The notes: a model not told the origin generated them from the sequence alone. Counted from the stretch's first letter, positions 13,544-46,696 are shown. The stretch is DNA of 64,000 bases from an uncultured Chloroflexia bacterium (GCA_963800275.1 CAWDAI010000008.1:19447-83446), one strand, 5' to 3'. A program made the numbers and translations.

Positions 13544-13594
13544 CACCGTGGCGCTGGTTCGGAATCACCAGTGGCGTACTAGTCATTACTCATC

Positions 13595-23579: not shown

Positions 23580-26158
23580 GTCACGGGGCTCGGCCGCCCG
23601 CAGCTGGGCGCGGTGGACCTAGCTGGCAGCGTCGGCCTGCTTCGACGGCGGTCTCGGCCCCGGCCTGCAGGTCCTCGCAGCGTTCGGGCGCTCTCGAAGT
23701 CGGACTTGATCGATTCGAGGGCGTTGAGGTCGGGCAGCTCCGCCTGCGCGTCGCTCGCAGACTTGATCCAGCGCTCTGCTTCCTTGGCGCTCTCGACCGC
23801 GGCCCCGAAGTTGCCGGCTGCGACCGGGTCGGCCACGACCGCGGGGATGTGCCAACTGGGCACCAGCAGCTCCAGCGTGGCCAGGGCGTTGCCCACGGTC
23901 ATCGCCTCCGCCGCGCGTGCCTCCACGCGCTTCCGCAGCGCGGCCATCTCCGCTCCGCTGGTGACCGCTTCGAACTGGGGCCGGACCTCGTCACGCAGGC
24001 CGGCCTGCGGCAGCGCCTCGTCCGCGCTCGTGGCGGCATCGACCACGGCCTGCGCGTCCCCGATGATCCTGGTGCCGGCGTCGATCTCGCCGGTCTCGAG
24101 CGGGCGCGTCACCGCGGCGGGGATGGCCCACTCGCCGGCCGCCACCTGCAGGGCCTCCAGCGCGCGTCCGGCGATGGACGCTTTGCGGTGGTCGGAGGCG
24201 GCTTCATCGGCCAGCGTCTGGAGGCTGGCGGCCGTGGCGCTGTTCTCGTAGCGGAGCTTGTATTTGTCGAGGAAGTTCGCCTGCGGCAGGGCGACGTCGG
24301 CGGCGGTGATCTCCTGGACCGCCCGAGTGGCCGGCGCGATGGCCGCCGAGATGTCACTCCAGCGCTGCTCGCTGAGGGCGTCGCGCACGGCCAGTGGCAT
24401 GAACCAGCCGGCCGGTGCAGCGCTCTGCATCGCACCAAGGTCGGGGGCCACGCCCCGGGCACCCTTGAGCAGGTTGTCGACGAACTCGGTAACCGCGTCG
24501 AGTTCCGCCTCGTTGGCGGCCGCCTCGAACTGCGGCTGCACGATGTCCGGCAGGTTGGCCACCGGCAGCAGCCGGTCGGCCTCGATGAGGTTCTGGTAGA
24601 CCTCGCGCGATTTGTCGATGCGGTCCATGGCGGAGCGGAACTCCCAGTCATCCATGTCCTTGCGCACGGCACGCGGCGCGCCCAGGGGGGCGATGTCGGC
24701 GAGAAACTGGTGGTAGGCGGCTCGCGCCTGTGAGCGCAACATCAGCTCGGACTCGCCGCCCGGCAGGTCCGCGGCGATGCCGAACCTGTCCAGCAGGTTT
24801 TGGGCGAAGTCGAGATCGTCGAGGTTGGCCGCGTAGGCCGGGTCGGCTGCGGCCGGCACCAGGCCGCGCTCATCGACCGCATCGAGCCATTCCCGATAAT
24901 CGACGCCGGTGGACGTCCCGGTCTCGGGACCCGCGGTGCCGATGTACTTGGTCTCTCCCCGAAGCATGGAGCCGACGACCTCGTCCCACTGCTCCTGGGG
25001 CATGCGCTCGCGGACGGCGGCGACGATGCCGCAGGCGGCGGCGTCCTGGGCCTCGATGCGGGTCTGATAGTCATCGGGCGACTGCGGCTGGACGACCATC
25101 CACTCGGAGAGGTCCAGCTCCAGCGGGTTGGCGGAGGCGGGCTCGCAAGTTGTCCCGCGCATGGCGCTCGCGGTCCACTCGGCCATACCCTCGCGCAGCC
25201 AGATGTCCGGGAAGTTGTCAGCTCCGTACCAGGCGTGGGCCAGCTGGTGGTCCGTAGCCTCCAGTGGGAATTCGCTGAGCTGGACGATGCCGGAAGCCCC
25301 GTGGGTGCTGGCGTAGCCACCGACGTCCCGCGACGGGGCCATGCGCACCACCACCGTACTGTCGCCCGGGATGGGCTGGCCGATGAAGCTGTCGAGGTCG
25401 CGCAGTACCTCGGGAGCGACGCTGCCGGCCGCATCCAGCCAGCCGTCACCACCGCTCCAGGCCTGCAACTCGAACGCACGGTCACGCGGACCGATGATCG
25501 TGTCCGGCAGGAGGCGGTCCTGGCGCACGCCCTCGAAACAGGTGAAGACCGAACCGGGCCTGTTCCTGGAGCTCGCGGTGGTTCGATAGCCGCTGCTGGT
25601 GATCTCCATGGGCGTGCCCAGCGGTTGGCTGAAGCCCCACTGGGAAAGGTCGTCCACGGCGACCGAGACGCTGCCCACGTTCGTGTCCTGGCCGGTCACA
25701 CAGAGGTAGATGTAGCTGTCGTTCACGCGCGCGGGCGTGGTGCGCTTGGCGGCGTTGTTGCCGGGGTCCGCATCGAGGGCGTAGCGCAGCGTGAAGGAAC
25801 CAGAATCACCCTGGGAGATGGGCTTCTTGTTGAGCACGGAGATCGGCTTCCAGAGGCCGGGAAGACTGTCCCGGCTCCTGGCGAGCGTGAAGGCTCCGGT
25901 GATGTCTGGCGGTGGCGCCGTCTCCTCGACGGCCAGCGGGCCCCAGGCCCGCTTCGGCCGCCAGGTCGTCCCGGTCAGCGGGCTCAACTTCACATCCATC
26001 CGCACATCGATGGTGCCCTCGTCCGGGTGGACCTGGTATTTCACATCCGAGGATTCCTTGAGCTGGTCGGAGATGGCGGCGACAGGCAGCGCCAGCACGA
26101 TCGAAGCCACGATCGCGAGCAGCAGCGAGACGAGGGCGCGGCAGGCCCCAGACGACAT
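23381..26158 (-). CDS. Large secreted M1-aminopeptidase-like (HQxxH variant) protein with C-terminal 45-aa helical repeats; 3' end apparently frameshifted
   Basis: Start MSSGACRALVSLLLAIVASIVLALPVAA (CAT 26156-26158). M1-type motif DHQLAHAWYGADNFPDIWLREGMAEW parallels HExxHxW...WLNEGFA but with Gln in place of the catalytic Glu. At least 4 repeats of ..ALPQAxLxD...QFEA... follow. The last 85 aa before the stop at 23381 have out-of-frame composition. Confidence 0.65.
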   Translation of the reverse strand: MSSGACRALVSLLLAIVASIVLALPVAAISDQLKESSDVKYQVHPDEGTIDVRMDVKLSPLTGTTWRPKRAWGPLAVEETAPPPDITGAFTLARSRDSLPGLWKPISVLNKKPISQGDSGSFTLRYALDADPGNNAAKRTTPARVNDSYIYLCVTGQDTNVGSVSVAVDDLSQWGFSQPLGTPMEITSSGYRTTASSRNRPGSVFTCFEGVRQDRLLPDTIIGPRDRAFELQAWSGGDGWLDAAGSVAPEVLRDLDSFIGQPIPGDSTVVVRMAPSRDVGGYASTHGASGIVQLSEFPLEATDHQLAHAWYGADNFPDIWLREGMAEWTASAMRGTTCEPASANPLELDLSEWMVVQPQSPDDYQTRIEAQDAAACGIVAAVRERMPQEQWDEVVGSMLRGETKYIGTAGPETGTSTGVDYREWLDAVDERGLVPAAADPAYAANLDDLDFAQNLLDRFGIAADLPGGESELMLRSQARAAYHQFLADIAPLGAPRAVRKDMDDWEFRSAMDRIDKSREVYQNLIEADRLLPVANLPDIVQPQFEAAANEAELDAVTEFVDNLLKGARGVAPDLGAMQSAAPAGWFMPLAVRDALSEQRWSDISAAIAPATRAVQEITAADVALPQANFLDKYKLRYENSATAASLQTLADEAASDHRKASIAGRALEALQVAAGEWAIPAAVTRPLETGEIDAGTRIIGDAQAVVDAATSADEALPQAGLRDEVRPQFEAVTSGAEMAALRKRVEARAAEAMTVGNALATLELLVPSWHIPAVVADPVAAGNFGAAVESAKEAERWIKSASDAQAELPDLNALESIKSDFESARTLRGPAGRGRDRRRSRPTLPARSTAPSCGRPSPVTCSPTSGWPAWTWTPSSTRPLPQPSQGMSRMRSISPPMPSPSSMVRLQTARCAWPASSSSGWRCWA

Positions 26159-26291
26159 GGGACGCTCCTCTGTGGATGCGGACATGGGTGAGTGCGGTTC
26201 TGTGCAGTTGGGACCGTAACGCGAACGCCAACAAGGGGCAAGGTGGACCATCGGCAGCGTCGGGACAGGACCGCTCACCCATACTCGGTCC

Positions 26292-27548
26292 GTGCCCCGT
26301 CGTCGCCTCGCCATGCTCTACGCCCTCGCGGGCATCAGCCTTGGGCTGATCCTGCCTTTCACCGTGCCGCTGCTCGCCGAACGCGGCCTGGGCGCGGTCG
26401 AGATCGGCGTGGTCATGAGCTTGACGGGGGTCGCGGCCCTGGTCTCCTATCCCGTGTGGGGCGCCATCGCAGACGGCTGGCTGGGCCGACGCCGGACCGT
26501 CGCCGTCGCGGCCGTGCTGGCGGCCCTCGGTGGCGTGTCGCTCATGCTGGCGGGTCAGGACCCGCTGGCCCTGGCCCTGGCCCTGGCCGTGGTCATCGTG
26601 GGCACGCTGGCCTGGAACCCGTTGATCGACGCGCTCGCGCTCGCGGTCCTGGGCGACGGTTCCTCCGACTACGGTCGGCTGCGCCTGTGGGGCTCGCTGG
26701 GCTGGGCTGCATCAGCCATGTCCGCGGGCGTGGTCTGGACGCTGGTCGGGCCGACGCCGGTGTTCCTCGCCTTCGTGGCGGCCGCGCTCCTGGTGGGCGG
26801 GCTGGTGCTCCTGCCGCTCCCGGGGGAGGTCGGGAGCGCCTCTGCCGGCGACGGCTCGGCCGGCGACGACACCCGCCCGCCGCTGCGCTCGTGGTTGCCG
26901 CTGGTGGCCACGCCGCTGATGCTCGGGTTCCTGCTCGGCCTGCTGGTCACCTCGCTCGGTGAGCACGCCTCGTGGCGCTTCATCGGCCTGCGCATCCTGG
27001 ACCAGGGCGGTGGCGTCTTCCTCATCGGCCTGGCGGCCTCATTGCCGGCGCTGGTGGAGGTCCCCGTGTTCCTCTCGTCGCGCCGGCTGGCTGGCTACTT
27101 CGGGCTGCGCCGGCTGTTCGTGGGTGGAGCAGCGGTCGCGGCCATCATCATGGGTCTCATCGCGGTCGCCCCCGAGCCATGGATGGTGGCCGGGCTGCGC
27201 ACCCTCGACGGAGTGTCCTACGCGATGCGCTACACGGCCATGGTGCTCATCGTGGGCGCCCTCCTGCCTCGCTCGCTGTTCGCCTTCGGGCAGTCGGTGG
27301 CCTGGTTCGTCTATGCCGGGATCGCCCCCATCGTGGCCGACGCGGCCGGCGGGCTCATCTACGAGGCCTTCGGGGCAGAGGCGCTGTTCCTGGCCACGAT
27401 GGTGGCGCTGGCCGTCGGGGGCGCCATCGTCTGGCTGGTGCTGCGCGGGCCGCGCTTCGGTCCGCAAGGGTCGCTGCCGGCCGCGGCGGCAGGATCGGTG
27501 GCTCCTCCGCCGGCGGGTCCCGAGGCACCGCTCCCGCCGCCGGGCTGA
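26292..27548 (+). CDS. MFS-superfamily transporter
   Basis: 12 predicted TM segments, MFS-like loop motifs (GAIADGWLGRRR); 418 aa (alternative start at MLYALAG). Confidence 0.8.
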   Translation: MPRRRLAMLYALAGISLGLILPFTVPLLAERGLGAVEIGVVMSLTGVAALVSYPVWGAIADGWLGRRRTVAVAAVLAALGGVSLMLAGQDPLALALALAVVIVGTLAWNPLIDALALAVLGDGSSDYGRLRLWGSLGWAASAMSAGVVWTLVGPTPVFLAFVAAALLVGGLVLLPLPGEVGSASAGDGSAGDDTRPPLRSWLPLVATPLMLGFLLGLLVTSLGEHASWRFIGLRILDQGGGVFLIGLAASLPALVEVPVFLSSRRLAGYFGLRRLFVGGAAVAAIIMGLIAVAPEPWMVAGLRTLDGVSYAMRYTAMVLIVGALLPRSLFAFGQSVAWFVYAGIAPIVADAAGGLIYEAFGAEALFLATMVALAVGGAIVWLVLRGPRFGPQGSLPAAAAGSVAPPPAGPEAPLPPPG

Positions 27549-27560
27549 GCGATCTGACGG

Positions 27561-28685
27561 TCAGTCAGCGACGATCCACTGACCGCCTCGCATGACGCGC
27601 CGCACGGCGAACGAGCCGGCGTCGAGCTCGGCGATGTCCGCGCGCAGCCCCGGGGCCAGGCGTCCGCGGTCGTCACAGCCGAGCAGCTCGGCGGGGTTGG
27701 TCGAGGCGGCTCTCACGGCATCGCACAGCGCTACGCCGTGGCGGACCAGGTTGCGCAGCTCCAGGTCGCTGGCCGTGACCGAGCCGGCCAGGTTGCCGCC
27801 GTGGACGAGGGTCGCGCGCTCACCGTCGACGCGCACCTCCAGCGCGCCCAGCATGCCTCGGCGCTGCCCCGATCCGGCGAGCGAGATGGCGTCGCTCACG
27901 AGGACCACGCGTTCCCGTGGCTTCAGCCGCCAGATGAGTGGCCAGAGGTCGGGATCGACGTGCTGGGTGTCGGCGATCAGCTCTACCCAGATCTCGTCGT
28001 CGAGCAGAGCGGCGAGCGCCAGGCCCGGGTCTCGGTGCGCCAGCCCGCCCATGGCGTTGAACAGGTGGGTCGTGGTCATGGCACCGGCCGCATACCCGGC
28101 CCGCGCCTGGGCCACGCTCGCTGCCGAGTGACCCAGCGAGACGCGGACGCCGTGGCGGGCGAGCGTCTCGATCAGCGCGGGCGCACCCCGCAGCTCAGGG
28201 GCGATGGTCATGATGCGCAGGCCCTCGAGGAAGGTCGCCAGGATGGTCTCGTCCAGGTCGGCCGGATGGCGCAGCAGCTCGGTCGGGTGCGCACCTTTGC
28301 GCTCCTCGGCCAGGAAGGGCCCCTCCATGTTGAAGCCGAGGGGTGCGGCGCCATCCCTTGGCGCGTCGGGCATCCAGCGACGGACCGACTCGGCGTACTC
28401 GGAGAGGTCGGTGAAGGTCGCGCTGACCGACGTGGGCAGGAAGGAGGTGACCCCACGGCGCGCCAAGGCCCGAGCCATGCCCGTGAGCGCGGTCGGACCG
28501 TCCATCGCGTCGTGGCCGCCCCAGCCGTGGACATGGACGTCGATGAGACCCGGCACCACCAGCACATCCTCCCTCGCGTCGGGGTCGGGCTCGATCCCGG
28601 CGATGCGCCCGTCGTCATCGGTGAGCAGGTGGCCGCGCAGCTCGCCCTCGTCGAGCACGAGCCGGCCGGAGATGGTCTCAGTCAT
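27561..28685 (-). CDS. nagA: N-acetylglucosamine-6-phosphate deacetylase
   Basis: Internal start MTETISG (CAT 28683-28685). Amidohydrolase metal-binding motifs GLIDVHVHGWGGHD and HLFNAM; 375 aa. NagA-like throughout. Confidence 0.85.
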   Translation of the reverse strand: MTETISGRLVLDEGELRGHLLTDDDGRIAGIEPDPDAREDVLVVPGLIDVHVHGWGGHDAMDGPTALTGMARALARRGVTSFLPTSVSATFTDLSEYAESVRRWMPDAPRDGAAPLGFNMEGPFLAEERKGAHPTELLRHPADLDETILATFLEGLRIMTIAPELRGAPALIETLARHGVRVSLGHSAASVAQARAGYAAGAMTTTHLFNAMGGLAHRDPGLALAALLDDEIWVELIADTQHVDPDLWPLIWRLKPRERVVLVSDAISLAGSGQRRGMLGALEVRVDGERATLVHGGNLAGSVTASDLELRNLVRHGVALCDAVRAASTNPAELLGCDDRGRLAPGLRADIAELDAGSFAVRRVMRGGQWIVAD

Positions 28686-29826
28686 AGTCGCCTGCCTCCT
28701 CCACGGCCTGCCAGAAGGCCAGGATGTTCTCGGTCGGCACGTGGGCCTGCATGTTATGGATGCTGGCGATGACGAAGCCACCGCCGGGCTTGAGCTGCTC
28801 GATCCGCCGGACCGTCTCCGCGTAGACCTCCTCGGGCGTGCCCCGGGCCAACGTCCGCTGAGGATCGACGGTGCCGCCCCAGAAGGTGATGTCGTCGCCG
28901 AACTCGCGCTTGAGCACGTCCGTCTCCATGCCCTCCGCGGAGACCTGCACCGGGTTGATGGCATCCACGCCGATGTCGATGAGGTCGCCCATGAGCTCGC
29001 TGATGGCGCCGCACGAGTGCAGGAAGAAGCGCGCGTTCGAGCGGCTCTTGATGAGGTCGATGATCTCCTTGTGCAGCGGCTTGACGATGTCGCGGTAGGC
29101 CGCAGGGCTGAAGAGCGGTGCGTGCTGCGCGCCGAGGTCGTCGGCCTCGGCGGCGATGTCGATCTCCGGCCCGATCTCGTCGAGCACCCGTTCCCAGTAG
29201 GCCAGCTTGAGATCGGTGATCCGGCGCATGAGCGCGCGTGCGAGGTCGGGCTGGAGGGCCAGGTCCATGTAGCCGTCCTCGTAGCCGCGCAGGCGGAAGT
29301 GCATCTCGGTCACGCCCGCGCAGAGCGAGCCCACGAAGGTGGCTCGCCGCTCCACCTCGTGCACCTGTGCCGCTCGCTCCCTGAGGCCTACGAAGCGGCC
29401 GGGATCGACCGGGTCGGGCCAGGGGTAGGCCGCGATGTCGTCCCTCGTGATGGGACCTGAGAGCGGTGCGCTCACAGACTCGTAGTAGAGGCCGCCGTGC
29501 GGTCGTGCCCGCAGCACTCCGAACTCGTCGAGGAAGCGTTCGTACTGACCATCGTCGGAGACCTCGCGCTGGTACCCGTGTGGCGAGCCGCCGCTGACCA
29601 GGCCCACGTCCGCACCCCATCGCTCGAGCATGTCGGCGTGCACGCCGGCGAGCCCCTGGGTGGTGTCCACGATACGGATCTCGGCTTCCGGCAGGCCCAG
29701 GGCGGGCCGCAGGCGCGCATAGGCCTCGGCGTGGATGCTGCTGTAGCGCGTGCCGGCGAAGTCGCGCGGCACCCGGTCCGCCTGGCGGTGGTCGAGCGCG
29801 GTCAGGACGCGTTCACGTGAGTGCAT
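28678..29826 (-). CDS. Uroporphyrinogen-decarboxylase (URO-D)-family protein (MtaA/CmuA-like)
   Basis: Start MHSRERVLTALDHRQADRVPRDF (CAT 29824-29826); 382 aa with URO-D fold features throughout (…FFLHSCGAISELMGDLIDIGVDAINPVQ…). Stop is 2 nt before the nagA start. Confidence 0.75.
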   Translation of the reverse strand: MHSRERVLTALDHRQADRVPRDFAGTRYSSIHAEAYARLRPALGLPEAEIRIVDTTQGLAGVHADMLERWGADVGLVSGGSPHGYQREVSDDGQYERFLDEFGVLRARPHGGLYYESVSAPLSGPITRDDIAAYPWPDPVDPGRFVGLRERAAQVHEVERRATFVGSLCAGVTEMHFRLRGYEDGYMDLALQPDLARALMRRITDLKLAYWERVLDEIGPEIDIAAEADDLGAQHAPLFSPAAYRDIVKPLHKEIIDLIKSRSNARFFLHSCGAISELMGDLIDIGVDAINPVQVSAEGMETDVLKREFGDDITFWGGTVDPQRTLARGTPEEVYAETVRRIEQLKPGGGFVIASIHNMQAHVPTENILAFWQAVEEAGDYD

Positions 29827-29876
29827 GGTCACCCCCATTGGTCGGGCCGCCGGGCCGGAGCCCGGATGGCCGCAGG

Positions 29877-30623
29877 CTACACGCCGGGCTCGATGGTGAG
29901 GGCACCGCTGTCCTCGACCGAGAAGCCGACATTGAGTCCGTAGCGCTCGGCCGCGTAGCGCGATTCGGTGCGCTCGATCGGTCGACCGCGCTGGTCGTAG
30001 ATGAGTCGCCGCTCCACCAGCAGCGGGTCGCCGAGGGCCACCTCCAGCAGCGCGGCATCGGTCTCGTCCGCGGCCTTGGCTCCGATGGTGGCGCGGCCCC
30101 GCGAGGGCACGATCCCGGCCGCGATGAGCGCCTCGTGGAGCGAGCCGGTCTCGAGGTCGGCGGCCATGACGGCCTCGGCACAGCGGGGCGTGAGCACCGC
30201 CAGCTCGGTCGCCACCGGCTCGTCGTCGGCCAGCCGCACGCGATAGAGCGCGACCACCTTGGCACCGTGGGCCAGGCGCAGGTCCACGCGCTCCCCGTCG
30301 AGCGCGGGCCGGACCCGCCGCTCGACCACGTACGAGCTGGGCACACGCCCGCTGCGGCGCATCTCGTGGCTGAAGGTCATCAGGAAGTTGGCCCGCCGGT
30401 GGGCCGGCGGCTCGGCCACGAACGTGCCCCGTCCGGGGTCGCGCCGCACGAGGCCTTCGTCGGCCAGCTGGGCCATGGCGTGGCGGGCCGTCATACGGCT
30501 GACCCCGAACTCGGCACAGAGGTCGGCATCCGAGGGCAACCGCTGGCCCGGACGCAGGTGGGCGATGCGGGCGCGCAGGGCAGCCTCGATCTCTCGGTAG
30601 CGGGGCGCGTAGTCCATGCTCAT
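29877..30623 (-). CDS. GntR-family (HutC/UTRA subfamily) transcriptional regulator
   Basis: Start MSMDYAPRY. wHTH LPSDADLCAEFGVSRMTARHAMAQLADEGLV followed by a UTRA effector domain; 249 aa. Confidence 0.8.
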   Translation of the reverse strand: MSMDYAPRYREIEAALRARIAHLRPGQRLPSDADLCAEFGVSRMTARHAMAQLADEGLVRRDPGRGTFVAEPPAHRRANFLMTFSHEMRRSGRVPSSYVVERRVRPALDGERVDLRLAHGAKVVALYRVRLADDEPVATELAVLTPRCAEAVMAADLETGSLHEALIAAGIVPSRGRATIGAKAADETDAALLEVALGDPLLVERRLIYDQRGRPIERTESRYAAERYGLNVGFSVEDSGALTIEPGV

Positions 30624-31588
30624 GTGGTCGGCCCGCCCTCGACGTTCGCCGCCAGCGCACTCCCACGCTCCGCTGCTCGTTCGGCCCCGTGAACGGCGGC
30701 GCCGATGGCCCCGGCCCACGTGCCTAGCTCTGCGAGCACCACGTCCACGCGCTCGACCGGGGTGGTGATCACGCGGCGCCGCATCTCGGCCTTGATGGGC
30801 TCGATGATTAGCTCGCCCGCGCTGGCCCAGCCGCCGCCGAGGATGACCAGGTCGGGCGTGATGATGGTGACCGCGTTGGACAGGCCGATGCCCAGGTAGC
30901 GCCCCACCTGGGCCAGGCCGTCTCGCGCCCGCGCGTCGCCGGCCCGGGCCCGCTCGATGGCCTCGCGCGGGTCACGCGTCCCGCAGGCGGCTGCGACCTG
31001 GTCGGCCCGGCAGTAGGCCTCCACACAGCCCCGATTGCCACAGCCGCACCAGGGCCCATCGGGATCGATGGTCTGGTGGCCCAGCTCACCCGCCTGCCCG
31101 CGATAGCCTTGGATGACCTGGTTGCCGATGGCGTAGACCCCACCGATCCCGGTGCCCAAGGTCAGCCCCACGAACGAATCGACGGCCCGGCCCGCGCCGA
31201 AGCGCAGCTCGGCCAGGCCGAAGGCGCGGGCGTCGTTGATGAGCGCGGTGGGCAAGCCGGTGGCGGCTTCGACAGGCGCGCCCGTGGGCGTGGCCGACCA
31301 GTCGCCGGGCACGTTGGTCAGGAAGGTGACCACACCCGACTCGGGGATGTAGAGCCCGGGCACCGCCACGCCGCAGCTCAGCACCGGCCCGTCGGTCACG
31401 GCGTCGCGGATCTCCGTCGCCAGTGCCGCCAGCTGTGGGACCACGCTGGCCTCGCCGCGAGAGGTGTCGGTGGGCACCTGCCCGCGGTCGAGGGTGTGCC
31501 AATCCTCCGGACCCGACCGCTCCACCACCACCCACTTGGTATTGGTGCCGCCGAGGTCCAGGCCGATGTGTCGCGTCGACGGTGCCAT
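30620..31588 (-). CDS. ROK-family sugar kinase (no HTH; GlcNAc/glucose kinase-like)
   Basis: IGLDLGGTNTKWVVVE phosphate-1 motif and ROK zinc motif GHQTIDPDGPWCGCGNRGCVE; 323 aa. ATGA overlap with the GntR gene. Confidence 0.8.
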   Translation of the reverse strand: MAPSTRHIGLDLGGTNTKWVVVERSGPEDWHTLDRGQVPTDTSRGEASVVPQLAALATEIRDAVTDGPVLSCGVAVPGLYIPESGVVTFLTNVPGDWSATPTGAPVEAATGLPTALINDARAFGLAELRFGAGRAVDSFVGLTLGTGIGGVYAIGNQVIQGYRGQAGELGHQTIDPDGPWCGCGNRGCVEAYCRADQVAAACGTRDPREAIERARAGDARARDGLAQVGRYLGIGLSNAVTIITPDLVILGGGWASAGELIIEPIKAEMRRRVITTPVERVDVVLAELGTWAGAIGAAVHGAERAAERGSALAANVEGGPTT

Positions 31589-31601
31589 CCGAGTGCCCCG
31601 C

Positions 31602-32600
31602 CTACTCCTCGATGATGCGGTTGTACGCCGCCGCCACGGACAAGACGATGGCGCCAAAGAGGATCTGTCGCGCTGCCTCCGGCATCTGTAGCACCGTCAG
31701 CAGCGTGGTCAGCACCGTCAGGATCACGGCACCCACGATGCTACCGCCGTAGCCACCGCGGCCACCGTAGATGGATGTCCCGCCGATGACCGCCGCCGCC
31801 ACCGACGGCAGGACATAGACTTCGACGAGCGTGCCGGTGGCGGTCTGGGTGAGGCCCGCGTAGATGAGGCCGGCGATCCCGGCCAGGACCCCCGAGATGA
31901 CGTACAAGACGACCAGGACTTGCCAGACCCGGACGCCAGCCAGCCGGGCCGCGAACTCGTTGTCACCGATGGCATAGAGCACCCGCCCGAAGCCACTACG
32001 GCGCAATCCCAACAGGATGACCGCGGCGAGTGGGATGAAGACGATGAGGCTGTTGGGGATCCAGCCGAAGGACGTTCGTGCGCCCAGCCACAGGATCTCG
32101 TCGGGCACGCGCGTCCCGCTTCCGATGACGATCCGCTGATACACGGTCAGCAGGCCCAGGACGACCAGGCTCATGCCCAGGGTCATGATCAGGGGGTGGA
32201 CACGGAAGATGCCCACGCCGATACCGTTCACGAGGCCGATGACGGTGGCCACGACGAGGGCGAGGATAGAGGCCGCCACGACACCCTCGGCGGGAGCCTG
32301 CGTGGCCATGACATAGGCCGACATCGAGGCCACCATCCCGACCGACAGATCGATCCCGCCGGTGATCATGGTCAGGGTCTGGGAGGCCGCCAGGATGGCT
32401 AGCGGGATCGCGAACCGGATGGTCGACGAAAGCCAACGCTCATTCACGATTCCAGGGCGAACGATCTCTAGCGTGACCACAAGCAGGGCCAACAGCAGCA
32501 GCAGCGGGATGAGGGGTCGGTCGCGCATCACTCGCCGAGCCGAACCCAGCCATGGCCAGCGGCCCACATCCACGGCGCTGGCCTGAGGTGACGAACTCAT
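31602..32600 (-). CDS. Sugar ABC transporter permease (ribose/xylose-type, BPD_transp_2)
   Basis: Start MSSSPQ (CAT 32598-32600, ATGA overlap with the upstream permease); 333 aa with about 9 TM helices. Confidence 0.85.
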   Translation of the reverse strand: MSSSPQASAVDVGRWPWLGSARRVMRDRPLIPLLLLLALLVVTLEIVRPGIVNERWLSSTIRFAIPLAILAASQTLTMITGGIDLSVGMVASMSAYVMATQAPAEGVVAASILALVVATVIGLVNGIGVGIFRVHPLIMTLGMSLVVLGLLTVYQRIVIGSGTRVPDEILWLGARTSFGWIPNSLIVFIPLAAVILLGLRRSGFGRVLYAIGDNEFAARLAGVRVWQVLVVLYVISGVLAGIAGLIYAGLTQTATGTLVEVYVLPSVAAAVIGGTSIYGGRGGYGGSIVGAVILTVLTTLLTVLQMPEAARQILFGAIVLSVAAAYNRIIEE

Positions 32601-33604: not shown

Positions 33605-35190
33605 GCGGTCACTTCCTCCCCAGCTCCCCGGCCTGTGCCACCGCCCGCGAGGATGCCTACCGTGCCCGTCTCGCGGGGCAATCCGTAGGCGGCCCGGATG
33701 AGCGTAGGTTCGTCGGCGATGGAAGCCGGGATATCGTCCACGACACGACCGGAGAAGATGACGACTGCCCGGTCGCAAGCCAGTTGGACCTCTTCGAGCT
33801 CTGAGGTATAGAGCAAGACCGCTGCGCCCGCGTCTGCAAGGTCGCGGAGGAGCTCGTAGATCTCCCGCTTGGTGCGGATGTCGATGCCTCGCGTTGGGTC
33901 GAAACAGAGCAAGGTCCGCACGCCGCCTGCGATCCAACGAGCGATGGTGACCTTCTGCTGGTTGCCGCCGGAGAGTCGTCGCACTTCGCCCTGGGCCCGC
34001 GTGTCGATCTGCAGTCGCTTGATGGCACTCGCGACACGTTCACGCTCGGCGCCCATGTCGATGGGTCCCCAGCGACGCGGCCGCGCGGTGGAGGGAAGCG
34101 CGATGTTCTCGCGCACCGAACGCTGCATGAGCAACGCTTCGACGCGGTCGCCCGGCACGTAGACGAGTCCCTTTCTGATGGCGTCAGCGGGATGGCGGAA
34201 GTGGACTTCCCGGCCGTCGACTTCCAGGGAGCCGCGGCTCGGGCGACGCATACCCGAGAGCACACCGAACAGCTCATCCTGCCCCTGCCCCTCCAGCGCC
34301 ACGAGCCCGAGAACCTCGCCAGGGTGAAGTTCGAATGAGACCTCCTTCAGCCGCAAGCCAGCACCGATACCGTGAAGGCGCAGTCGTGCTTCGGTCTGTT
34401 TGAGAGGCACTTCAGAGACTTGTGTAGCCGCGGACGTGGCACGTCGAGCGGGTGCGGCCTCGCGCTCGTCCGAGGGCCCCATCATCAGGTCGACGATCGC
34501 CTCCGCCGCCCCTGGCTCCATGTCGACGACACCGACCGTCTCGCCATCTCGCAGGACCGTTGCCCGGTCGCAAAGCGCAGAGACCTCGAGCAAACGGTGC
34601 GAGATGAAGATGACGGACTGCCCGGTCTCACGCAGCTTCCCAACCTCATCGAGGACCTTCTCCGCCAGGTCCGCGGGCAAGGCAGCGGTCATCTCGTCGA
34701 GCAGCAGGATGTCGGGCTCCACAGCAATGGCTCGGGCCAGATCGAGAACACGCACCACGGCCAGCGGCAGGTCCCGGACCATCTCGTGGAGATCGAGGTC
34801 ATGGACACCGAGTCGCTCCACCCATGCTCTTACCGGGGACGCTGGCGTCTGGGTGAGGCGCAGATTCGCGAGCACATCAAGGTCGGGGATGAGGGCGGGT
34901 TCCTGGTATACCGAGATCAGACCTGACCGCCTCGCGGCGGCGGGCGAATGGACGTCTCGTTCCTGGCCGCGAACGAGGATTCGGCCACGATCCGGGTGCA
35001 CCGCACCGGTCAGGATCTTCACGAGGGTGGACTTGCCCGCCCCATTGGCGCCGAGAAGGGCATGCACCTCGCCAGGTCGCACCGCAAGAGAGGCCTCGCG
35101 CAACGCGACGACCGCTCCGTAGCGCTTGACCACGCCCGTGGCATCCAGGAGCAGCTCTGTGGTTTCCGGGGTGGGCTGGGGTGGCGTCAA
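33601..35190 (-). CDS. Sugar ABC transporter ATP-binding protein (duplicated NBD)
   Basis: Two Walker A/ABC signature sets (GANGAGKSTL...; LSGGNQQKV); 529 aa. Confidence 0.9.
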   Translation of the reverse strand: MTPPQPTPETTELLLDATGVVKRYGAVVALREASLAVRPGEVHALLGANGAGKSTLVKILTGAVHPDRGRILVRGQERDVHSPAAARRSGLISVYQEPALIPDLDVLANLRLTQTPASPVRAWVERLGVHDLDLHEMVRDLPLAVVRVLDLARAIAVEPDILLLDEMTAALPADLAEKVLDEVGKLRETGQSVIFISHRLLEVSALCDRATVLRDGETVGVVDMEPGAAEAIVDLMMGPSDEREAAPARRATSAATQVSEVPLKQTEARLRLHGIGAGLRLKEVSFELHPGEVLGLVALEGQGQDELFGVLSGMRRPSRGSLEVDGREVHFRHPADAIRKGLVYVPGDRVEALLMQRSVRENIALPSTARPRRWGPIDMGAERERVASAIKRLQIDTRAQGEVRRLSGGNQQKVTIARWIAGGVRTLLCFDPTRGIDIRTKREIYELLRDLADAGAAVLLYTSELEEVQLACDRAVVIFSGRVVDDIPASIADEPTLIRAAYGLPRETGTVGILAGGGTGRGAGEEVTA

Positions 35191-35280
35191 GGCGTATCTG
35201 TCCCGATCTGTCTCAGGAGAGGGTGCAGGCGAACCTGCACCCTCTCCTGCATCGATCGCAAAGCGATCGCAAGGGGTCGA

Positions 35281-36372
35281 CTATTCCTCGCCGGGACCCT
35301 TGCACGCGAGGATCTGGTCCTCGGTGTAGGTGGTCCAGCCGGGGATGCTGATGGTCACTGGCCAGAACGGATCCAGTGAGCCCGAAGCAGCGATAGCCGC
35401 CTGGATCTTCTCCTGGCCCTCAGGGGTCTGGTTGTCCCACAGCTCGGGATTGACGAGCACCGCGGGGTCGCTGGGCGCGTCACCATCAAGGATCTGGAGC
35501 GCCAGCGTCACGCCGGCACCACCCACGGAACCCGGGTTGGTCACGGCGGCTCCGACGAGACCCTCCTGGGTCCCAAGCTGGTTCACGAACTCGGAGTTGT
35601 CCGCTCCGACGACCGGGACACCCTCGATACCGGCAGTCGTGAGCGCCGAGACGATCACGCTATCGATACCGGAGGTCCAGACGCCGTCGACGTTCTGGCC
35701 GCTGTTGATGACATCGTTGATCTGCTGAGCGCCCGTAGCCTGGTCCCAGCCGGTGAAGGTCTCGGACACGATGTTGATGTCCGGATACTCCGCCAGGGCT
35801 TGCTTGAAGCCGACGTCACGATCTGTGTCGGCCTGGGCTCCGGCGATACCGCGCATGTACACGACGTCGCCTGCGCCACCGATCTGATCGAACAGCCACT
35901 TGGCGCCCATGTAGCCGTATTCTTCCTGGTCGTTGGCCATCAGATATGCGCCATCCTGCGTGACGCCCATGTCCACCGCGACCACCACGATCCCTGCGTC
36001 GATGGCCTCGGCGAGAGCGTCGTTGACGGCCTCAGGGCTGACCGGGTTGACGATGATGGCGTCGACATCGGCAGCGATAAGGTTTCGCAGGTCCTCGAGC
36101 TGCCCTGCCGCATCGGTGGTTCGGTGGGCGACGATGAGGTCGCTCACTTCGCCTGAAGCAAGGGCCTGGGCGCGGATGGAGCAGATCATCTCCTCGCGCC
36201 AGCCGTTGCCCTGCAGCGTGTTGGACACGCCGAGCTTGTAATCGCCACCAGCTGCCATCGACGCCTCGGGCGCCATGCTCTCATCCTGGGCGAGGGCCGC
36301 GGTGCCGAGGCTCGTGGCCGCGAGCGCCATGATGGCGCCGCCGGTGAAGAGCTTGCCGTACTTGTGAACCAT
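35281..36372 (-). CDS. Sugar ABC transporter periplasmic substrate-binding protein (Peripla_BP_4-like)
   Basis: Signal/lipobox-like N-terminus then a type-I periplasmic binding fold (…VVVAVDMGV…VGADNSEF…); alternative start 36393. Confidence 0.8.
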   Translation of the reverse strand: MVHKYGKLFTGGAIMALAATSLGTAALAQDESMAPEASMAAGGDYKLGVSNTLQGNGWREEMICSIRAQALASGEVSDLIVAHRTTDAAGQLEDLRNLIAADVDAIIVNPVSPEAVNDALAEAIDAGIVVVAVDMGVTQDGAYLMANDQEEYGYMGAKWLFDQIGGAGDVVYMRGIAGAQADTDRDVGFKQALAEYPDINIVSETFTGWDQATGAQQINDVINSGQNVDGVWTSGIDSVIVSALTTAGIEGVPVVGADNSEFVNQLGTQEGLVGAAVTNPGSVGGAGVTLALQILDGDAPSDPAVLVNPELWDNQTPEGQEKIQAAIAASGSLDPFWPVTISIPGWTTYTEDQILACKGPGEE

Positions 36373-36476
36373 GTGACTCCTTGTCCTCCACACATGAAGG
36401 TGACTGGGTGACCGTGGGGCGAGATACCCCGGGCCGGGTGGATCGGTCCGAAATCGGGTCGGGTCACACCTCCTCG

Positions 36477-37289
36477 CTATGGCTTGCCGCTTGGTTCGTC
36501 ATCGGGATCGCGCACGAGGGCCCGTGCCACGCGGCGCGCGTGCTCACGATACGCGCCCTCGAAGAGGGCCCGTGAGCGCTCGGCGCCGACGACGGAGGCG
36601 CGCGTGATGACAGGTGGCGTTAGGCCCCGCTCCACGAGGAGCTGGGCGATGCGCACCTTCAGGGAGTTGACGATGGCCACGTAGGCCAGCGTCGAGCCCG
36701 GACCGACGGGCGTGTCCAGCCCGGGCACGGTGACCATGGCATCCGCCTCCGGCGTGCACAGGTCGATGACGATGTCGGCCTCGTCGAGCAGGCGCCCGCC
36801 GACCGCCGGATCGGGCTCTCCGGACAGCGACTGCTCGACCCCCGTCACGGCGACCACCTTGCAGCCGCGCTGGCGGGCGCCACGCGCCACCTCCACCGGG
36901 ACCGCGGTCAGGCCGTTGGCGCTGAAGACCATCATCACATCGTCGGGGCCGAAGCTGAAGTTGTCGAGGATGACCTTGGCCAGGCCGGGCACGCGCTCGA
37001 TGAACATGGCTTGCCGTTGACCGTTCGTGCCGACCACGTCGAAGTGGTTGGACATCGACAGCTCCACGATGGGGTGGAAGCCCGGGAAGCTGCCGTAGCG
37101 CGGGAACATCTCCTCCACCGGGATGCGCGAGTGGCCCGTGCCGAAGAGGTGCACCAGGCCGTCGGCAGCGATCGAGCGCGCACACAGCTGCGCGGCCTCC
37201 TCGAGCACATCCGCCTGGGTGGTGACGATGCGCTCGAGGAGGGCCTGGGCTTCGTCGAACCAGGCCCCGCTGCCGTTGAAGTCGCTCAT
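36477..37289 (-). CDS. SIS-domain protein (UPF0309-like sugar-phosphate binding/isomerase)
   Basis: LVHLFGTGHSRIPVEEMF... SIS phosphosugar-binding motif; 270 aa. Confidence 0.75.
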   Translation of the reverse strand: MSDFNGSGAWFDEAQALLERIVTTQADVLEEAAQLCARSIAADGLVHLFGTGHSRIPVEEMFPRYGSFPGFHPIVELSMSNHFDVVGTNGQRQAMFIERVPGLAKVILDNFSFGPDDVMMVFSANGLTAVPVEVARGARQRGCKVVAVTGVEQSLSGEPDPAVGGRLLDEADIVIDLCTPEADAMVTVPGLDTPVGPGSTLAYVAIVNSLKVRIAQLLVERGLTPPVITRASVVGAERSRALFEGAYREHARRVARALVRDPDDEPSGKP

Positions 37290-37323
37290 CGTGTCGTGTT
37301 CACCTCGCTGGTCGTTCGTTGCG

Positions 37324-38239
37324 CTAACGGATGAATGGTCGGAGCTGGTCGCGGGCTACCAGGAACCCACGCTTGATCTTCTGGTCGCTGCCTTCGAAGA
37401 TCCTGTCCTCGTGCTCGATGATGATGGGTCCGTCATACCCCGTGCGATAGAGCTCGGAGAAGATCTCCGCCCAGGGGGCGTGGCCCAACCCGGGGATGCG
37501 TGGGATCTGCCAGCCGATGCCACCGCTGATGGAGCCGCGTTCGTAGAGGCCGTCTCGATCGATCATCACATCCTTGGCCTGGAAGTGGAGGATGTGCTCG
37601 CCGAACTCGCGGATGAAGCGGCCCTGGTCGATCATCAGCCAGACCAGGTGGCTGGGGTCGAAGTTCAGGCCGACGGTGTCGCCCCACTCCTCCAGGATCC
37701 GCCGCCAGACGTACGGCGAGTAGGCGATGTTGTGGCCGCCCGGCCACTCGTCGTCGCTGAAGATCATGGGGCAGTTCTCGAAGGTCAGCTTGACCCCGTG
37801 GTCGTGCGCGAAACGCACGATATCGGGCCAGACCTTGAGGGCCTCCTCCCAGTTCTGGTCGACGGTCTTGCTCGCGTCGCCACCGCAGAAGGTGTTGGTC
37901 ACCGGCAGGCCCATCAGGCCCGTGGCCACGATGACCGACTTCAAGTGGTCGATGGCCGCGCTGCGCACCGCGGGGTCGGGATGGAGTGGATTGGGATAGA
38001 AGCCCAGGCCGGAGATGTCGAGGCCCTTCTCGCGCCAGCTGGCCCTTGATCTCGCTGCCCTGCGACTCGGTCAGGTTGGCCACGTCGATGTGGGCAGTGC
38101 CCGCGTACTTGCGCTTGACGCCGCCGCTTATGGGCCAGCAGGCGATCTCCAGCACCTCGAAGTCGGCCGCGGCAGCCCAGTCGGCGACCTCCATCAGCGG
38201 GGTCTCTGGGAACGGTGCGGTCAGGAAACCGAGCTTCAC
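37324..38239 (-). pseudogene. Sugar-phosphate isomerase/epimerase (xylose-isomerase-like TIM barrel), split by a 1-nt frameshift near 38025-38028
   Basis: N-terminal part MKLGFLTAPFPETPLMEVADWAAAADFEVLEIACWPISGG...KGQLAREG (ORF 37433..38239). It continues in another frame as LDISGLGFYPNPLHPDPAVRSAAIDHLKSVIVATGLMG... (ORF 37324..37968). The shift is in a GGG run (gaagggcctc). Confidence 0.7.
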
Positions 38240-38277
38240 ATCCTCCTCCTTTGCTTGCCTGTGCTAACGGTCGTGGC

Positions 38278-39433
38278 TCATTCGGCGACATCGACCCAGC
38301 GCTCCTCCGCCGCGCTGCGGGTGACGGCGTCGCCGACCGTCATCTCGTGGTGGCCGTCCTCGAAGGTGGCATAGAGCGGTCGGTCCGGCGGGCTTCCCGC
38401 CAGAACGGCCCGGTAGATCTCCGCGAAGTGCGAGCGCATGCTGTCCGCGAAGCCTTCGACGTGGCCACCGGGCAGGGCCGTGGCCGCCACGCCGGTCTCG
38501 TTCATCAGCTCGGCGCCGCGCTGCAGGATCTCGTTGGGCCGACCACGGTGGCCGATCCAGAGATGGTCGGGCGTCTCGCTATCCCAGGCGGCGGCCGCGG
38601 CTGGCGCCGTCGATCTCCCATTGCACCGAGTTCTTGCGGCCCGCGGACACCTGGCTGATGGCGACCGAACCGCGGGCGCCGTTGGCGTAGCGCAGCAGGA
38701 TGACCGCGGCGTCGTCGGTGGTCATCTCCACCGGCTCCGTCTCGGCGGCGCGCTCCTGGCTGAACGTCTCGACCTCACCGAGCGGCTTCTGGCGGACCTT
38801 GACGAAGGTCGAGAGGTCGGCCATGACCGACGCGACGCGCTGGCCGGTGATGAAGTTGGTGAGATCGATCCAGTGGCTGCCGATGTCGCCGACCGCGCGC
38901 AAATGACCGCCCTTGTCGGGCTCCAGGCGCCAGTTCCAGTCGGTGTCGAGCAAGAGCCAGTCCTGGAAGTAGTGACCGGTGACCAGACGGACGTCTCCCA
39001 GCTCGCCGTCGGCGACCATGCGCCGAGCGTGCTGGTTGAGCGGGTAGAAGCGGATGTTGAAGTTGACCGCTGCGATCAGGCCGGACGCCTCCGCCAGCGC
39101 CACCAGCTCGCGCGACTCGGACGAGCTCACCGCCAGCGGCTTCTCGCATACGACGTGCTTGCCCGCCGCCAGGATCGCCTCGACCTGGGGATAGTGGAAC
39201 TGGTTGGGCGAGGTCACGTGGACCACATCCACGTCGGGATCGGCAAGGGCGGCTTCCAGGCTCGGGTAGGCCACCGGCAGGCCCATGCGCACGGCCGCGG
39301 CCTGGGCCAGCTCGGGCGTCGCGTCGACCACACCGCGCACATCGACCCCCAGGCGGCGCAGGGCTTCGACATGCACGGTGCCGATGAACCCGCTGCCGAT
39401 GACGGCCGCGCCGACCTCGCTGAAACGCTCCAC
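38278..39433 (-). pseudogene. Gfo/Idh/MocA-family NAD(P)-dependent oxidoreductase, split by a frameshift near 38595-38610
   Basis: Rossmann N-terminus AAVIGSGFIGTVHVEAL...; body ends ...SVQWEIDGASRGRRLG*. The adjacent frame continues AAWDSETPDHLWIGHRGRPNEILQRGAELMNETG...PGGHVEGF... (ORF 38278..38505), the canonical family C-terminus. Confidence 0.7.
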
Positions 39434-39526
39434 TGGACCCTCCTCCTCAGGAAACGGCGTAGCCGTCTAGATGGCTAGATGGCCAGCGCCCAATGTACCG
39501 ACGCGGTGCTGGCCGGTCAAACACGC

Positions 39527-40808
39527 TCATGCCGCGGCCCCATGCAGCGCCGCTGGCCGACCCGAGTCGATCCAGCGCGCCAGCTGCGCCTCGCTGAACA
39601 GCTCGTCCAGCACCATCGAGGCGGCGCCGATGACGCCGGCGCGGTTGCCGAGACGTGACAACTGGACCTGCAGATCGCGCGTGGCGAGCGCGGTGCTGCG
39701 GGCGTAGATGACCTGTCGGACCGTCGCGAGGTAGCTATCACCGGCGTGGGTCACGCCACCGCCGAGCACGATGAGGGACGGGTTGAAGAAGTTGGCCAGC
39801 CCGGCCAGGATCCCGCCGACCAGCATGGCGGAGCGATCGAGGAGGCGCGCTGCGGCCGGGTCTCCTGCCCGTGCTGCTGCCGTCACCTCCCGGGCCGTGA
39901 TCTGGCCCTGCTGCTGGAGCGCCGCCGCCAGCCGCTCGCTCCCGCCGTTCTGCGCCAGGGTCGTGCCCTCGCGTGCGAGGGCCTGGCCACCGGCGAGGAT
40001 CTCGAGGCAGTCGATCTTGCCGCAGCGGCAGGTCTCGCCGGTGCCGTTCACGACCTGGATGTGGCCGATGTCGCCGGCGCTGCCCTGGGCGCCACGGTGG
40101 ATGTGGCCGTTGCTCACGATGCCCGAGCCGATGCCGGTGCCGATCTTGACCACGATGAAGTCGTCGAGGCCGCGCGCGAGACCGGCGCGCCATTCGCCGA
40201 GGGCCATGATGTTGACGTCGTTGTCGACCCACACCGGCACCTGGTACCGGTCACCGAAGTATTCGCGCACCGGGTAGCCCTCCCAGCCGGGCATGATGGG
40301 CGGACTGATGGGGTGGCCGGTGCGGAATTCGACGGGTCCGGGCACGCCGATGCCCAGGCCCCACAGCTCACCGGGCGCCAGGGCCGTGGCCCGCAATCGT
40401 TCGAAGAGGGCCTCCACCCGGGCCAGCACGACTTCCGGTCCGGCGGTCACATCCGACGTTTCGGAGACACGCGCGAGGATGCGGCCCGTGCCATCGGCGA
40501 TGGCCACGTCCATGCCGGTAGCGCCGATGTCGGCCACGAGCAGATAGCCCGAATCGCCGCGGAACTCCAACTGTCGTGGCGGCCGGCCTACCGGTGCTGG
40601 CCGCGACCGACTCGGTCAGGAAGCCGCGAGCCAGCAGCTCGTTCACGCGCTGGGTGACGATGGCGCGTGAGAGCCCGGTGCGCGCGATCAGCTCGGAGCG
40701 GGAATGGGCGCGGCCCCGGCGGACCAGCTCGAGGATGGCCACGATGGCATCCAGCGATTCCCCCGGGACCGAACGTTGCTTCGGCACCCGTCCAGCATAC
40801 TTTTGCAT
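39527..40808 (-). pseudogene. ROK-family transcriptional regulator (wHTH + sugar-kinase-like domain), N-terminal HTH separated from the body by a frameshift near 40580-40600
   Basis: HTH part MQKYAGRVPKQRSVPGESLDAIVAILELVRRGRAHSRSELIARTGLSRAIVTQRVNELLARGFLTESV (ORF 40368..40964 frame). ROK body LEFRGDSGYLLVADIG...CRCGKIDCLE (ORF 39527..40570), offset by +1 in a ccggccgcc run. Confidence 0.7.
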
Positions 40809-40823
40809 GTCAAGTGCAAAAGT
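40799..40823. promoter_or_regulatory. Perfect palindrome ACTTTTGCA-N7-TGCAAAAGT overlapping the ROK regulator start codon (putative operator)
   Basis: 9-bp perfect inverted arms with a 7-bp spacer, AT-rich in a 70% GC background. The start codon (CAT 40806-40808) lies inside the left arm. Confidence 0.4.
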
Positions 40824-40905
40824 CGGAGGCGCACGATGGGAAAGACGTCTGGTCGCCGCGCGCAGGGCCAAGACCGGACGTCCGCTCCTCGTCGGCTCTC
40901 CGGGT

Positions 40906-41764
40906 CTAGCCCAGCTCGAACGTGGTCGTGCCGAAGACGCGCGATTCCTCGACGCGTGGGACATCGCCGAGATACATGCGCACGACGCTGAAGTCGACGC
41001 TCATGCGATGTCGACGCGCAAGGGCCATGGCCCAGGCGTTGACCTCCGGCACGTCGATAGACACGGGCTCCCCGGGGGCGAAGGCAGCGAGCGCCGTGTA
41101 GAGCTGCTCGGCGACCTCGCCGTCATCGGCAAAGAGGGGGCCGATCTTGGCGCCGACTCGGCAGCGTCGGACCACGCCGTAACCCTGCACCCGGCCTTGG
41201 CCGGGGACGGCCAGGGCCAGGGCCTGGTCCTGCTCCAACCAGGCCCGCAGGAAGCGATCACGCGGGGCGGGGAAGCAGCGTCGATCGTAGGCGGCGATCC
41301 AGGCATGCGGCACCTCGGCGGCCGGGACCACGCTCGTCGGACGGTCCATGGCCACGCCCTGCGCGCGGTAGCGGATCGTCCGATGCGAGGGCGTGAAGCC
41401 ACCGCTGCCGTACCAGCCTGGCCATCGCCTCTACGCCATCGAGACCGATCGATGCGCCACGTCGCAGGCGCGCCCGCAACAACTGCAGACGTGCCCGCCA
41501 GAGTCGTCCCCCGAAGCCTCGGAGACGGAACTCGGGCCGCACGATGAACAAGCCCATGAAGCCGAAGGCCCCGTCATAGCTGACGATGGCACCGCCACCG
41601 ATGAGCTGCCCGTCAAGCTCGGCCGCGACGAAGCCCTCCGGGTCGGTCGCCCAGAACGTCTCGTCGTCGTGGAGGCCCGGGTTCCAGCCCTCCGCGGCCG
41701 CCCACTCCAGCAGGGTGCCGACCTCGTCTCGCCGCATCAGGCGCAGCGTCAGGGGATCGTTCAT
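40906..41764 (-). pseudogene. GNAT acetyltransferase with C-terminal Acetyltransf_18/YitH-like domain, split by a frameshift near 41408-41418
   Basis: N-terminal GNAT MNDPLTLRLMRRDEVGTLLEWAAAEGWNPGLHDDETFW...GFGGRLWRA (ORF 41258..41827 frame). The C-terminus continues in another frame as ...YGSGGFTPSHRTIRYRAQGVAMDRPTSVVPAAEVPHAWIAAYDRRCF... (ORF 40906..41355). Confidence 0.6.
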
Positions 41765-46568: not shown

Positions 46569-46696
46569 CGAGTCCTCCTCCCTGGCTCATGGCCATCGCT
46601 CCCCCCAAGGGTACGTCCGTGCGGGACCACCGTGGTAGAGCCGACCGGCCCCGACGGCCGGGTTGCCTCCTGACCCAAGGCTGCCATGCTGTGCCC

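Follow-up and report, generated by a model that had tools for sequence, protein, structure and literature searches.

Indels are a main cause of frameshifts in metagenome assemblies made from long reads (PMC8302730; PMC9262707), and the assembler Flye is known to collapse strains that are about 98.7% identical into one consensus (PMC8302730). The metagenome-assembled genomes (MAGs) of the Microflora Danica catalogue, for example, were built from Nanopore reads only, by Flye assembly and a single subsequent polishing round with Medaka, and their authors searched for Nanopore-associated errors (PMC12313526). Here we examine a stretch of 64,000 nucleotides, about 70% G+C, from an uncultured Chloroflexia bacterium (GCA_963800275.1, CAWDAI010000008.1:19447-83446), referred to as the window, in which five genes seem to be split by frameshifts: an M1-like repeat protein gene (site 1), and the genes for a xylose-isomerase-like sugar-phosphate isomerase (site 2), a Gfo/Idh/MocA oxidoreductase (site 3), an ROK-family regulator (site 4) and a GNAT acetyltransferase (site 5). 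The split genes are best explained as not being a real biological feature. With high confidence, we regard the breaks as errors in the consensus of a long-read assembly that collapsed strains and placed the two alleles of a polymorphism one after the other. The window would be a Nanopore-type metagenome-assembled contig of a Limnocylindria-like Chloroflexota, and reads of at least two co-occurring strains, about 97-99% identical to each other, would have been merged into one consensus between 37.5 and 41 kb, and probably at the variable 3′ end of the M1-like gene as well. Where these strains differ by a single- or multi-nucleotide polymorphism, such a consensus would retain both alleles side by side, which would add one base and shift the frame. 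In the organism itself, all five genes are most likely intact.

The frame breaks were located with a codon-position GC (GC3) model, in which the six frames and a non-coding state are segmented by Viterbi decoding and in-frame stops are penalised. The decoded path switches frames on the same strand without a stop codon at 23619-23685, 38032/33, 38584/85, 40573/74 and 41375/76, and at each of the five breaks the upstream frame stays open for 115-600 nt past the end of the coding signal. No sixth stop-free switch was detected elsewhere in the 64 kb by this segmentation, which is blind to shifts within about 75 nt of a gene end. All of the five broken genes are on the minus strand. Furthermore, a Pfam search of the window fragments finds domains divided between frames at sites 2-5: positions 31-241 of the AP_endonuc_2 profile fall after the break at site 2; positions 1-122 of GFO_IDH_MocA_C precede the break at site 3 and positions 159-218 follow it; at site 4 a winged helix-turn-helix comes before the break and a complete ROK domain after it; and at site 5 Acetyltransf_1 and Acetyltransf_18 lie before and after the break, respectively. 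The original prediction, which had described five apparent single-base frameshifts in otherwise intact genes, was thus right about all five places. As to their nature, sites 2-5 are indeed single-base shifts, each of net +1, while site 1 is composed of four lesions (two +1 insertions, one TAG and one −1). The single-base shifts at the five reported sites are all net +1, and the sole −1 is found in the repeat tail of the site 1 gene. The breaks are clustered beyond chance (P = 0.008 for at least four of six events within 3.4 kb of 64 kb). Gene calls deposited at NCBI and ENA for the 236,686-bp contig from which the window is taken are the same fragments, P0001, P0083, P0084 and P0086 (925, 284, 347 and 214 aa), and therefore the errors are already in the public record and do not come from extraction of the window.

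The closest genomes are soil Chloroflexota MAGs of the Limnocylindria type, mostly from the Microflora Danica long-read catalogue. A scan of genome contigs found no genome of the same species, the best match showing 89% amino acid identity, and same-species sequences were obtained only when the five repaired junction peptides were joined into one chimeric protein query and the contigs of the matches were then looked up. The chimera search yielded four proteins spanning the junctions, P0122, P0113, P0111 and P0110. P0122 is a 426-aa ROK protein with about three different residues, encoded intact on contigs L081 and L082; P0111 is an intact Gfo protein in which about 14 of 384 residues differ (about 96% amino acid identity, estimated by eye, not computed); and P0110 spans site 1 at 93% identity. 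Contigs L081 and L082 (ENA ERZ25039549 contig_93280 and contig_104307) are 98.7-100% identical to the window in nucleotides over 39.17-51.7 kb and carry intact ROK and GNAT genes. Contig L086 (ERZ25039549 contig_93277) is 97.4% identical over 29.5-43.0 kb, with several genes split by +1 insertions of its own. In L085, a 1.38-Mb contig from another sample (ERZ25039500) with 94.6% nucleotide identity, and in L083 (ERZ25039549 contig_25401), with 90.7%, all four genes at the end of the operon, namely those of sites 2-5, are intact. Assembly ERZ25039549 holds at least three such strain contigs in addition to the more distant contig_25401, and one of the three matches the window at about 100% identity for 8.7 kb. 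Among the JGI short-read contigs from a metagenome scan (L087-L090), the extra bases at sites 1a, 1b and 2 are absent, and the codon at site 1c is TGG.

The exact lesions, which were positioned by DNA alignment with orthologues and with the near-identical contigs, can be read directly from these alignments together with the intact alleles. Each of the four operon-end genes has one lesion. The gene for the xylose-isomerase-like TIM-barrel protein (37324-38239, minus strand; sugar-phosphate isomerase/epimerase, PF01261; 304 aa after repair, as in the intact orthologues of L083 and L085) has one extra base at 38032-38035, in CTG GC[G]C GAG. The Gfo/Idh/MocA gene (38278-39433, minus strand; PF01408, PF22725 and PF02894; 384 aa after repair) has one at 38599-38602, in GCC A[G]CC GCG. 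In the gene for the ROK regulator (39527-40808, minus strand; N-terminal winged helix-turn-helix and ROK domain, PF00480; 426 aa after repair), the extra base is at 40589-40590, in ACC GG[TA] GGC, and in the gene for the protein with GNAT (Acetyltransf_1) and Acetyltransf_18 domains (40906-41764, minus strand; PF00583 and PF18014; 285 aa after repair, as in the intact orthologues of L081, L082, L083 and L085) it is at 41416-41419, in GCC AGG[C] TGG. Two further one-base insertions on the minus strand are non-coding, one at the Gfo stop codon (TGAG, 38277-38280) and the other between the ROK and GNAT genes (CATC, 40834-40836). Removal of one base near 38032, 38600, 40589 and 41417 results in full-length proteins, which match syntenic orthologues from end to end in a single frame in tblastn searches (83-88% amino acid identity for the isomerase, 77-89% for Gfo, 69-79% for ROK and 53-65% for GNAT). 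Their Pfam matches exceed the gathering score already in the window fragments and the same families are found in the intact orthologues, from which the enzymatic roles are predicted. The insertions at sites 4 and 5 are absent from L081 and L082, that at site 2 from L085, L083 and L089/L090, and that at site 3 from L085, L086 and L083; the lesions at sites 1a, 1b and 1c are absent from L084, L087 and L088.

What the inserted bases have in common is seen directly when the window is compared with the alleles of its relatives. Six window-specific one-base insertions, two of them non-coding, are covered by at least two close relatives, and all six fall on columns that are polymorphic among the relatives, where adjacent bases of the window correspond to both alleles, in tandem or as a superstring. 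At site 4, for example, L081 and L082 have GGA, and L083, L085 and L086 have GGT, a synonymous third-position single-nucleotide polymorphism (SNP), while the window has GGTA. Likewise, AGG (L081, L082) and GGC (L083, L085, L086) correspond to AGGC at site 5, AGC (L083) and ACC (L085, L086) to AGCC at site 3, and GCG (L083, L089, L090) and GCC (L085) to GCGC at site 2, where L086 carries the same insertion. The same applies to the non-coding positions: TGA (L083, L085) and TAG (L086) appear as TGAG at the Gfo stop codon, and CAT and CAC of the relatives as CATC at 40835. Polymorphic columns make up 10.6-11.5% of the aligned relatives, and the probability for six out of six by chance is about 2e-7. 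Site 1a also fits this pattern, since CAG is found in L084 and L087, GAG in L088 and CGAG in the window. Indeed, the phenomenon is not confined to the window. Within 13.5 kb, L086 shows eight +1 insertions that are specific to it, and seven of them are hybrids of alleles of the other close contigs; an example is position 39237, where L086 reads TGA against GA in the window and TG in L081. A ninth one-base difference of L086, at 35246, is common to L083 and L085 and hence more likely reflects a gap in the window.

Between 37500 and 41000, the window is directly seen to be a mosaic, alternating between the alleles of the co-assembled strain contigs every few informative sites. At sites where L081 and L086 are discordant, the window follows now one and now the other, in 43 runs between 39.2 and 43.0 kb with most switches inside 39.2-41.0 kb; a third allele does not occur in the window at such sites in this interval. 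Over 37.5-39.5 kb, it alternates between L086-type and L085-type alleles. Private alleles of the window number 0 in 38.4-43.0 kb versus 80 in 29.5-37.4 kb. Outside the mosaic zone, the window is about 100% identical either to L086 (29.5-31 kb) or to L081 (41-51.7 kb), and the 8.7 kb shared with L081 at 43-51.7 kb contain no coding one-base indel. The mosaic zone thus coincides with the non-random cluster of frameshifts.

A direct count also links frameshifts of this kind to the sequencing platform. When 17 window proteins were compared with 80 related loci by tblastn, the 46 loci from Microflora Danica long-read MAGs (459 kb of aligned orthologous coding sequence) showed 78 frameshifts, or 0.17 per kb, and the 34 loci from other MAGs (182 kb) showed one, or 0.006 per kb, which gives a rate ratio of 31 (p = 1.2e-10). 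Twenty-seven of the Microflora Danica loci are affected, with up to 10 frameshifts in one locus, and 69 of the 78 frameshifts are net +1 (p = 1.4e-12 for the bias). The contrast holds in the more distant tier of relatives (L027-L080) and hence is not a phylogenetic effect. In the same genes, four frameshifts were observed in the window versus 2.9 expected, so that both the rate and the +1 direction match those of the Microflora Danica loci. Dense clusters of frameshifts were also noticed in the public long-read MAG loci L001 (at 17.8-20.8 kb), L002, L005, L012, L021, L023, L030, L067 and L086; the 10 frameshifts of L001 include four within one 750-nt GntR-type gene. In addition, the protein collection holds C-terminal fragments of the TIM-barrel enzyme, 60-147 aa in length, on contigs of 28-365 kb.

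Site 1 is a more complicated case. The gene (23206-26158, minus strand) encodes an M1-like secreted, membrane-anchored protein, to which the deposited 925-aa call P0001 corresponds and whose homologues P0002-P0013 are about 960-975 aa long, with a signal peptide, a C-terminal transmembrane helix and a K/D-rich tail. Its native stop is TAG at 23206-23208, and all four lesions are located within the last 480 nt or so. On the coding strand, site 1a has one extra base in CTG C[G]AG GAC (23676-23677), site 1b has one extra base in GCC G[T]CG AAG (23643-23646), where the three short-read relatives have GCC GCC AAG, and site 1c is an in-frame TAG (23619-23621), where L084, L087 and L088 have TGG for Trp. 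The fourth lesion lies in a tail of tandem 18-nt repeats, GGC AAG AAG AAG GAC GAC (GKKKDD), at 23209-23262: alignment with L084, L087 and L088 shows that the window is longer by 17 nt (18 minus 1) than L087 and L088 and by 35 nt than L084, one unit having no G at about 23221/22. By this net −1, the native stop is missed and the frame reads through to 23088. The three relatives used here are short-read contigs with 90-92% nucleotide identity. The repaired protein is collinear with P0110 and P0002-P0013, except for the TAG. Most simply, 1b, 1c and the −1 of the repeat tail, all in the hypervariable 3′ end of the gene, are further consensus errors, although real mutation is possible there.

The number of GKKKDD copies varies among close relatives, so that the C-terminal tail is polymorphic in length. 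The match to Peptidase_M1 (PF01433) is weak, below the gathering score (E = 0.0089; 16.1 bits versus a cutoff of 27.7), and in the window and most homologues the zinc motif is HQLAH-X18-E, with Gln in place of the catalytic Glu of HEXXH, while P0006 has HELAH. Because of the sub-threshold score and the HQLAH motif, the protein is called M1-like and not a demonstrated peptidase; judging from the motif, the family may be one of pseudo-peptidases. Members of the family were found in soil and other environmental metagenomes, and those with taxon labels belong to Chloroflexota/Limnocylindrales.

Several points weigh against an origin of the breaks in tandemly written alleles. Neither the TAG at 1c nor the −1 in the repeat tail is of the tandem-allele type, and each calls for an explanation of its own, by ordinary error or real mutation; at site 1b, the relatives show a single allele (GCC). 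The insertion at site 2 is common to the window and L086, possibly by shared ancestry, yet the artefact is itself abundant in L086. For sites 3-5, the intact relatives are also long-read contigs. Finally, we infer the Nanopore origin of the window from the length of its contig, from its near-identity to ENA contigs with Flye-style "contig_N" names, from the sources of the records and from the error signature; the same Flye and Medaka pipeline was presumably used for its assembly, and the reads would presumably not support the inserted bases.

Among the other explanations, generic long-read error survives best, but it is unlikely. It supposes that insertions arose without strain mixing, through low coverage or systematic miscalling of bases, such as at a methylated motif, and would be random or set by a motif. 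Frameshifting consensus indels are well documented for Nanopore data, and R10.4 reads need about 40-fold coverage for near-finished genomes (PMC9262707); low coding density related to errors was reported for low-coverage MAGs by the Microflora Danica authors (PMC12313526). However, none of the extra bases in the window extends a homopolymer of three or more bases, and the homopolymer-error model was rejected for this reason. In this respect the original prediction, which had placed all the breaks in short G/C runs, did not hold: the extra bases assigned to a GGG run at site 2 and to a CCGGCC (ccggccgcc) run at site 4 are placed 8-10 nt upstream of those runs by the DNA alignments, at 38032-35 (GC[G]C) and 40589/90 (GG[TA]GG). 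Moreover, random or motif-set errors would not be expected to hit polymorphic columns exactly and to equal both alleles in six of six testable insertions, nor to lie in the mosaic zone and spare the coding sequence of the long stretch identical to L081.

A motif was nevertheless considered. For lesions 1c, 2, 3 and 4, a GCCAGC is present at the lesion or no more than 12 nt upstream, and at site 5 deletion of one G would recreate it; the TAG at 1c converts a would-be CAGCTG into CAGCTA. These neighbourhoods are at 23619-27, 38026-38, 38593-605, 40583-95 and 41410-22 on the minus strand, and lesions 1c and 2 are at or just downstream of GCCAGCTGG. The association of GCCAGC with the lesions is post hoc, 101 copies of the motif are present on that strand, and by our estimate the association is not significant after correction for the number of possible hexamers. 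A role of methylation, suggested by the presence of GCCAGC or CAGCTG near four to five of the seven lesions, was dropped, since the association is also not reproduced at the insertions of L086. The proximity may reflect a modification-linked base-calling problem or chance.

Still less probable are real mutations in a strain that is losing the downstream end of its sugar operon and the M1-like gene by recent pseudogenisation. Four consecutive genes are affected, not three as had been stated, their clustering is non-random, the insertion at site 2 is common to the window and L086, and a nonsense codon is among the four lesions of the M1-like gene. The operon concerned (28.2-40.8 kb) encodes an amidohydrolase, a URO-D-like protein, a GntR regulator, an ROK kinase, two permeases, an ABC ATPase, a binding protein, an SIS protein, the TIM-barrel enzyme, the Gfo oxidoreductase and the ROK regulator, and is followed by the GNAT gene. 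It is conserved and syntenic in L001-L023, L083 and L085, and is therefore not a dispensable island peculiar to this genome. Each broken gene of the operon end has a single lesion and no other disabling change, and there are zero private substitutions in 38.4-43 kb. Real indels are mostly biased to deletions and found in repeats, while the six coding and two non-coding insertions are all +1 and outside homopolymer runs of three or more bases. There is no mutational rationale for an inserted base to equal the allele of another strain, and the same pattern occurs at the non-coding positions 38279 and 40835. In addition, pseudogenisation leaves the 31-fold excess of the signature in Nanopore MAGs over other MAGs of the same lineage unexplained. 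Thus, of the two causes that the original prediction left open, ongoing decay of a dispensable sugar-utilisation island is not supported, the operon being syntenic and intact in relatives, and uncorrected indels of a long-read or low-coverage assembly are strongly supported and can now be specified as one-base insertions at strain polymorphisms in a mosaic consensus. The comparison with orthologous loci that it proposed points the same way: correction by one base per gene restores single reading frames collinear with orthologues at sites 2-5, and the genes are intact in close contigs, with the exception of L086, which shares the insertion at site 2.

There is a very slim chance that the tandem +1 insertions are real DNA, made by faulty repair or template switching at heteroduplex mismatches during recombination between strains. 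The presence of the site 2 insertion in two contigs leaves room for this reading, and if it were true, inter-strain recombination in this soil lineage would give rise to polymorphic frameshifts where SNPs lie. Programmed +1 ribosomal frameshifting, or other recoding that joins the frames in vivo, as in prfB, would account for six coding insertions that need the same kind of frame correction to give a full-length product and for downstream frames that are open and conserved, but its probability is negligible, since all orthologues, including intact ones at 97-100% identity, read each site in one frame, the contexts share no conserved slippery or stop-codon shift site, two insertions of the same type are non-coding, and five unrelated gene families are hit.

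Other features of the window and its relatives were noticed along the way. The region 12323-13876 was called non-coding by the GC3 model because of the composition of an open reading frame (ORF) that it contains, a proline-rich zinc-ribbon ORF and no sixth broken gene; the 319-aa ORF (12584-13543, plus strand) has an N-terminal zinc-ribbon-like CxxC...CxxC segment and a long proline-rich tail of the PPPGYG type. Scans of the window for tRNAs and Rfam families gave no hit. At 43819-44749, there is a polymorphic IS110-family element: L081 has an empty site, L082 has 1,433 bp with a 396-aa DEDD_Tnp_IS110/Transposase_20 gene, and the window has just 930 bp (99.9% identity), from which the 3′ part of the transposase gene is missing. 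This short copy is either a real truncation or a chimera of IS-containing and IS-free strain paths. At 46878, in a gene at 46691-48236 (plus strand), the window is without 45 nt (15 codons, in frame) that are kept in the otherwise about 100% identical L081, and this segment is flanked by the direct repeat GGCGATGC. Contig L089 (Ga0210085_1000985), aligned with 35852-39944, shares 96.2% identity with the window in the genes for the binding protein, the SIS protein and the TIM-barrel enzyme, and 86.4% across the adjacent Gfo gene; the drop at the Gfo boundary suggests recombination or mosaicism between lineages.

All five genes should be annotated as intact, and no decaying sugar island, truncated regulator or split acetyltransferase should be inferred from this contig. 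More generally, in the orthologous loci of Nanopore-only soil MAGs of the lineage, frameshifts number about 0.17 per kb of coding sequence and are mostly +1 and at strain polymorphisms where this can be checked, and the resulting fragments inflate pseudogene counts and skew coding density, gene-length statistics and protein-family clustering in such catalogues, as the 60-147-aa pieces of the TIM-barrel enzyme illustrate. When sister contigs exist, the tandem-allele signature, in which the inserted base is the allele of the sister contig, provides a cheap, read-free flag for errors.

Compared with known systems, the locus resembles genuine bacterial pseudogenes in having frameshifted and nonsense ORFs in adjacent genes, and differs from them in that lesions do not build up, private substitutions are missing, intact alleles exist in near-identical sequences, and the insertions equal alternative alleles, also in non-coding positions. 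It also resembles the Nanopore consensus indels that fragment gene calls, as detected by the IDEEL test (Sereika et al., 2022; PMC9262707), where one-base indels split full-length conserved genes. Unlike the classically described Nanopore errors, which are length errors in homopolymers of several or more bases, the insertions of the window extend no such run, are nearly all +1 and are located at strain polymorphisms. The location at polymorphisms recalls the collapsed Flye consensus described with Strainberry (PMC8302730), since one assembly contains strains at about 97-99% identity and the window alternates between their alleles at a fine scale. Tandem retention of both alleles giving +1 was not found described in the assembly literature cited here, and its recognition rests on the present alignments. 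While collapse and lowered identity are the consequences in the Strainberry account (PMC8302730), both alleles are kept here in tandem, and a +1 frameshift is the result.

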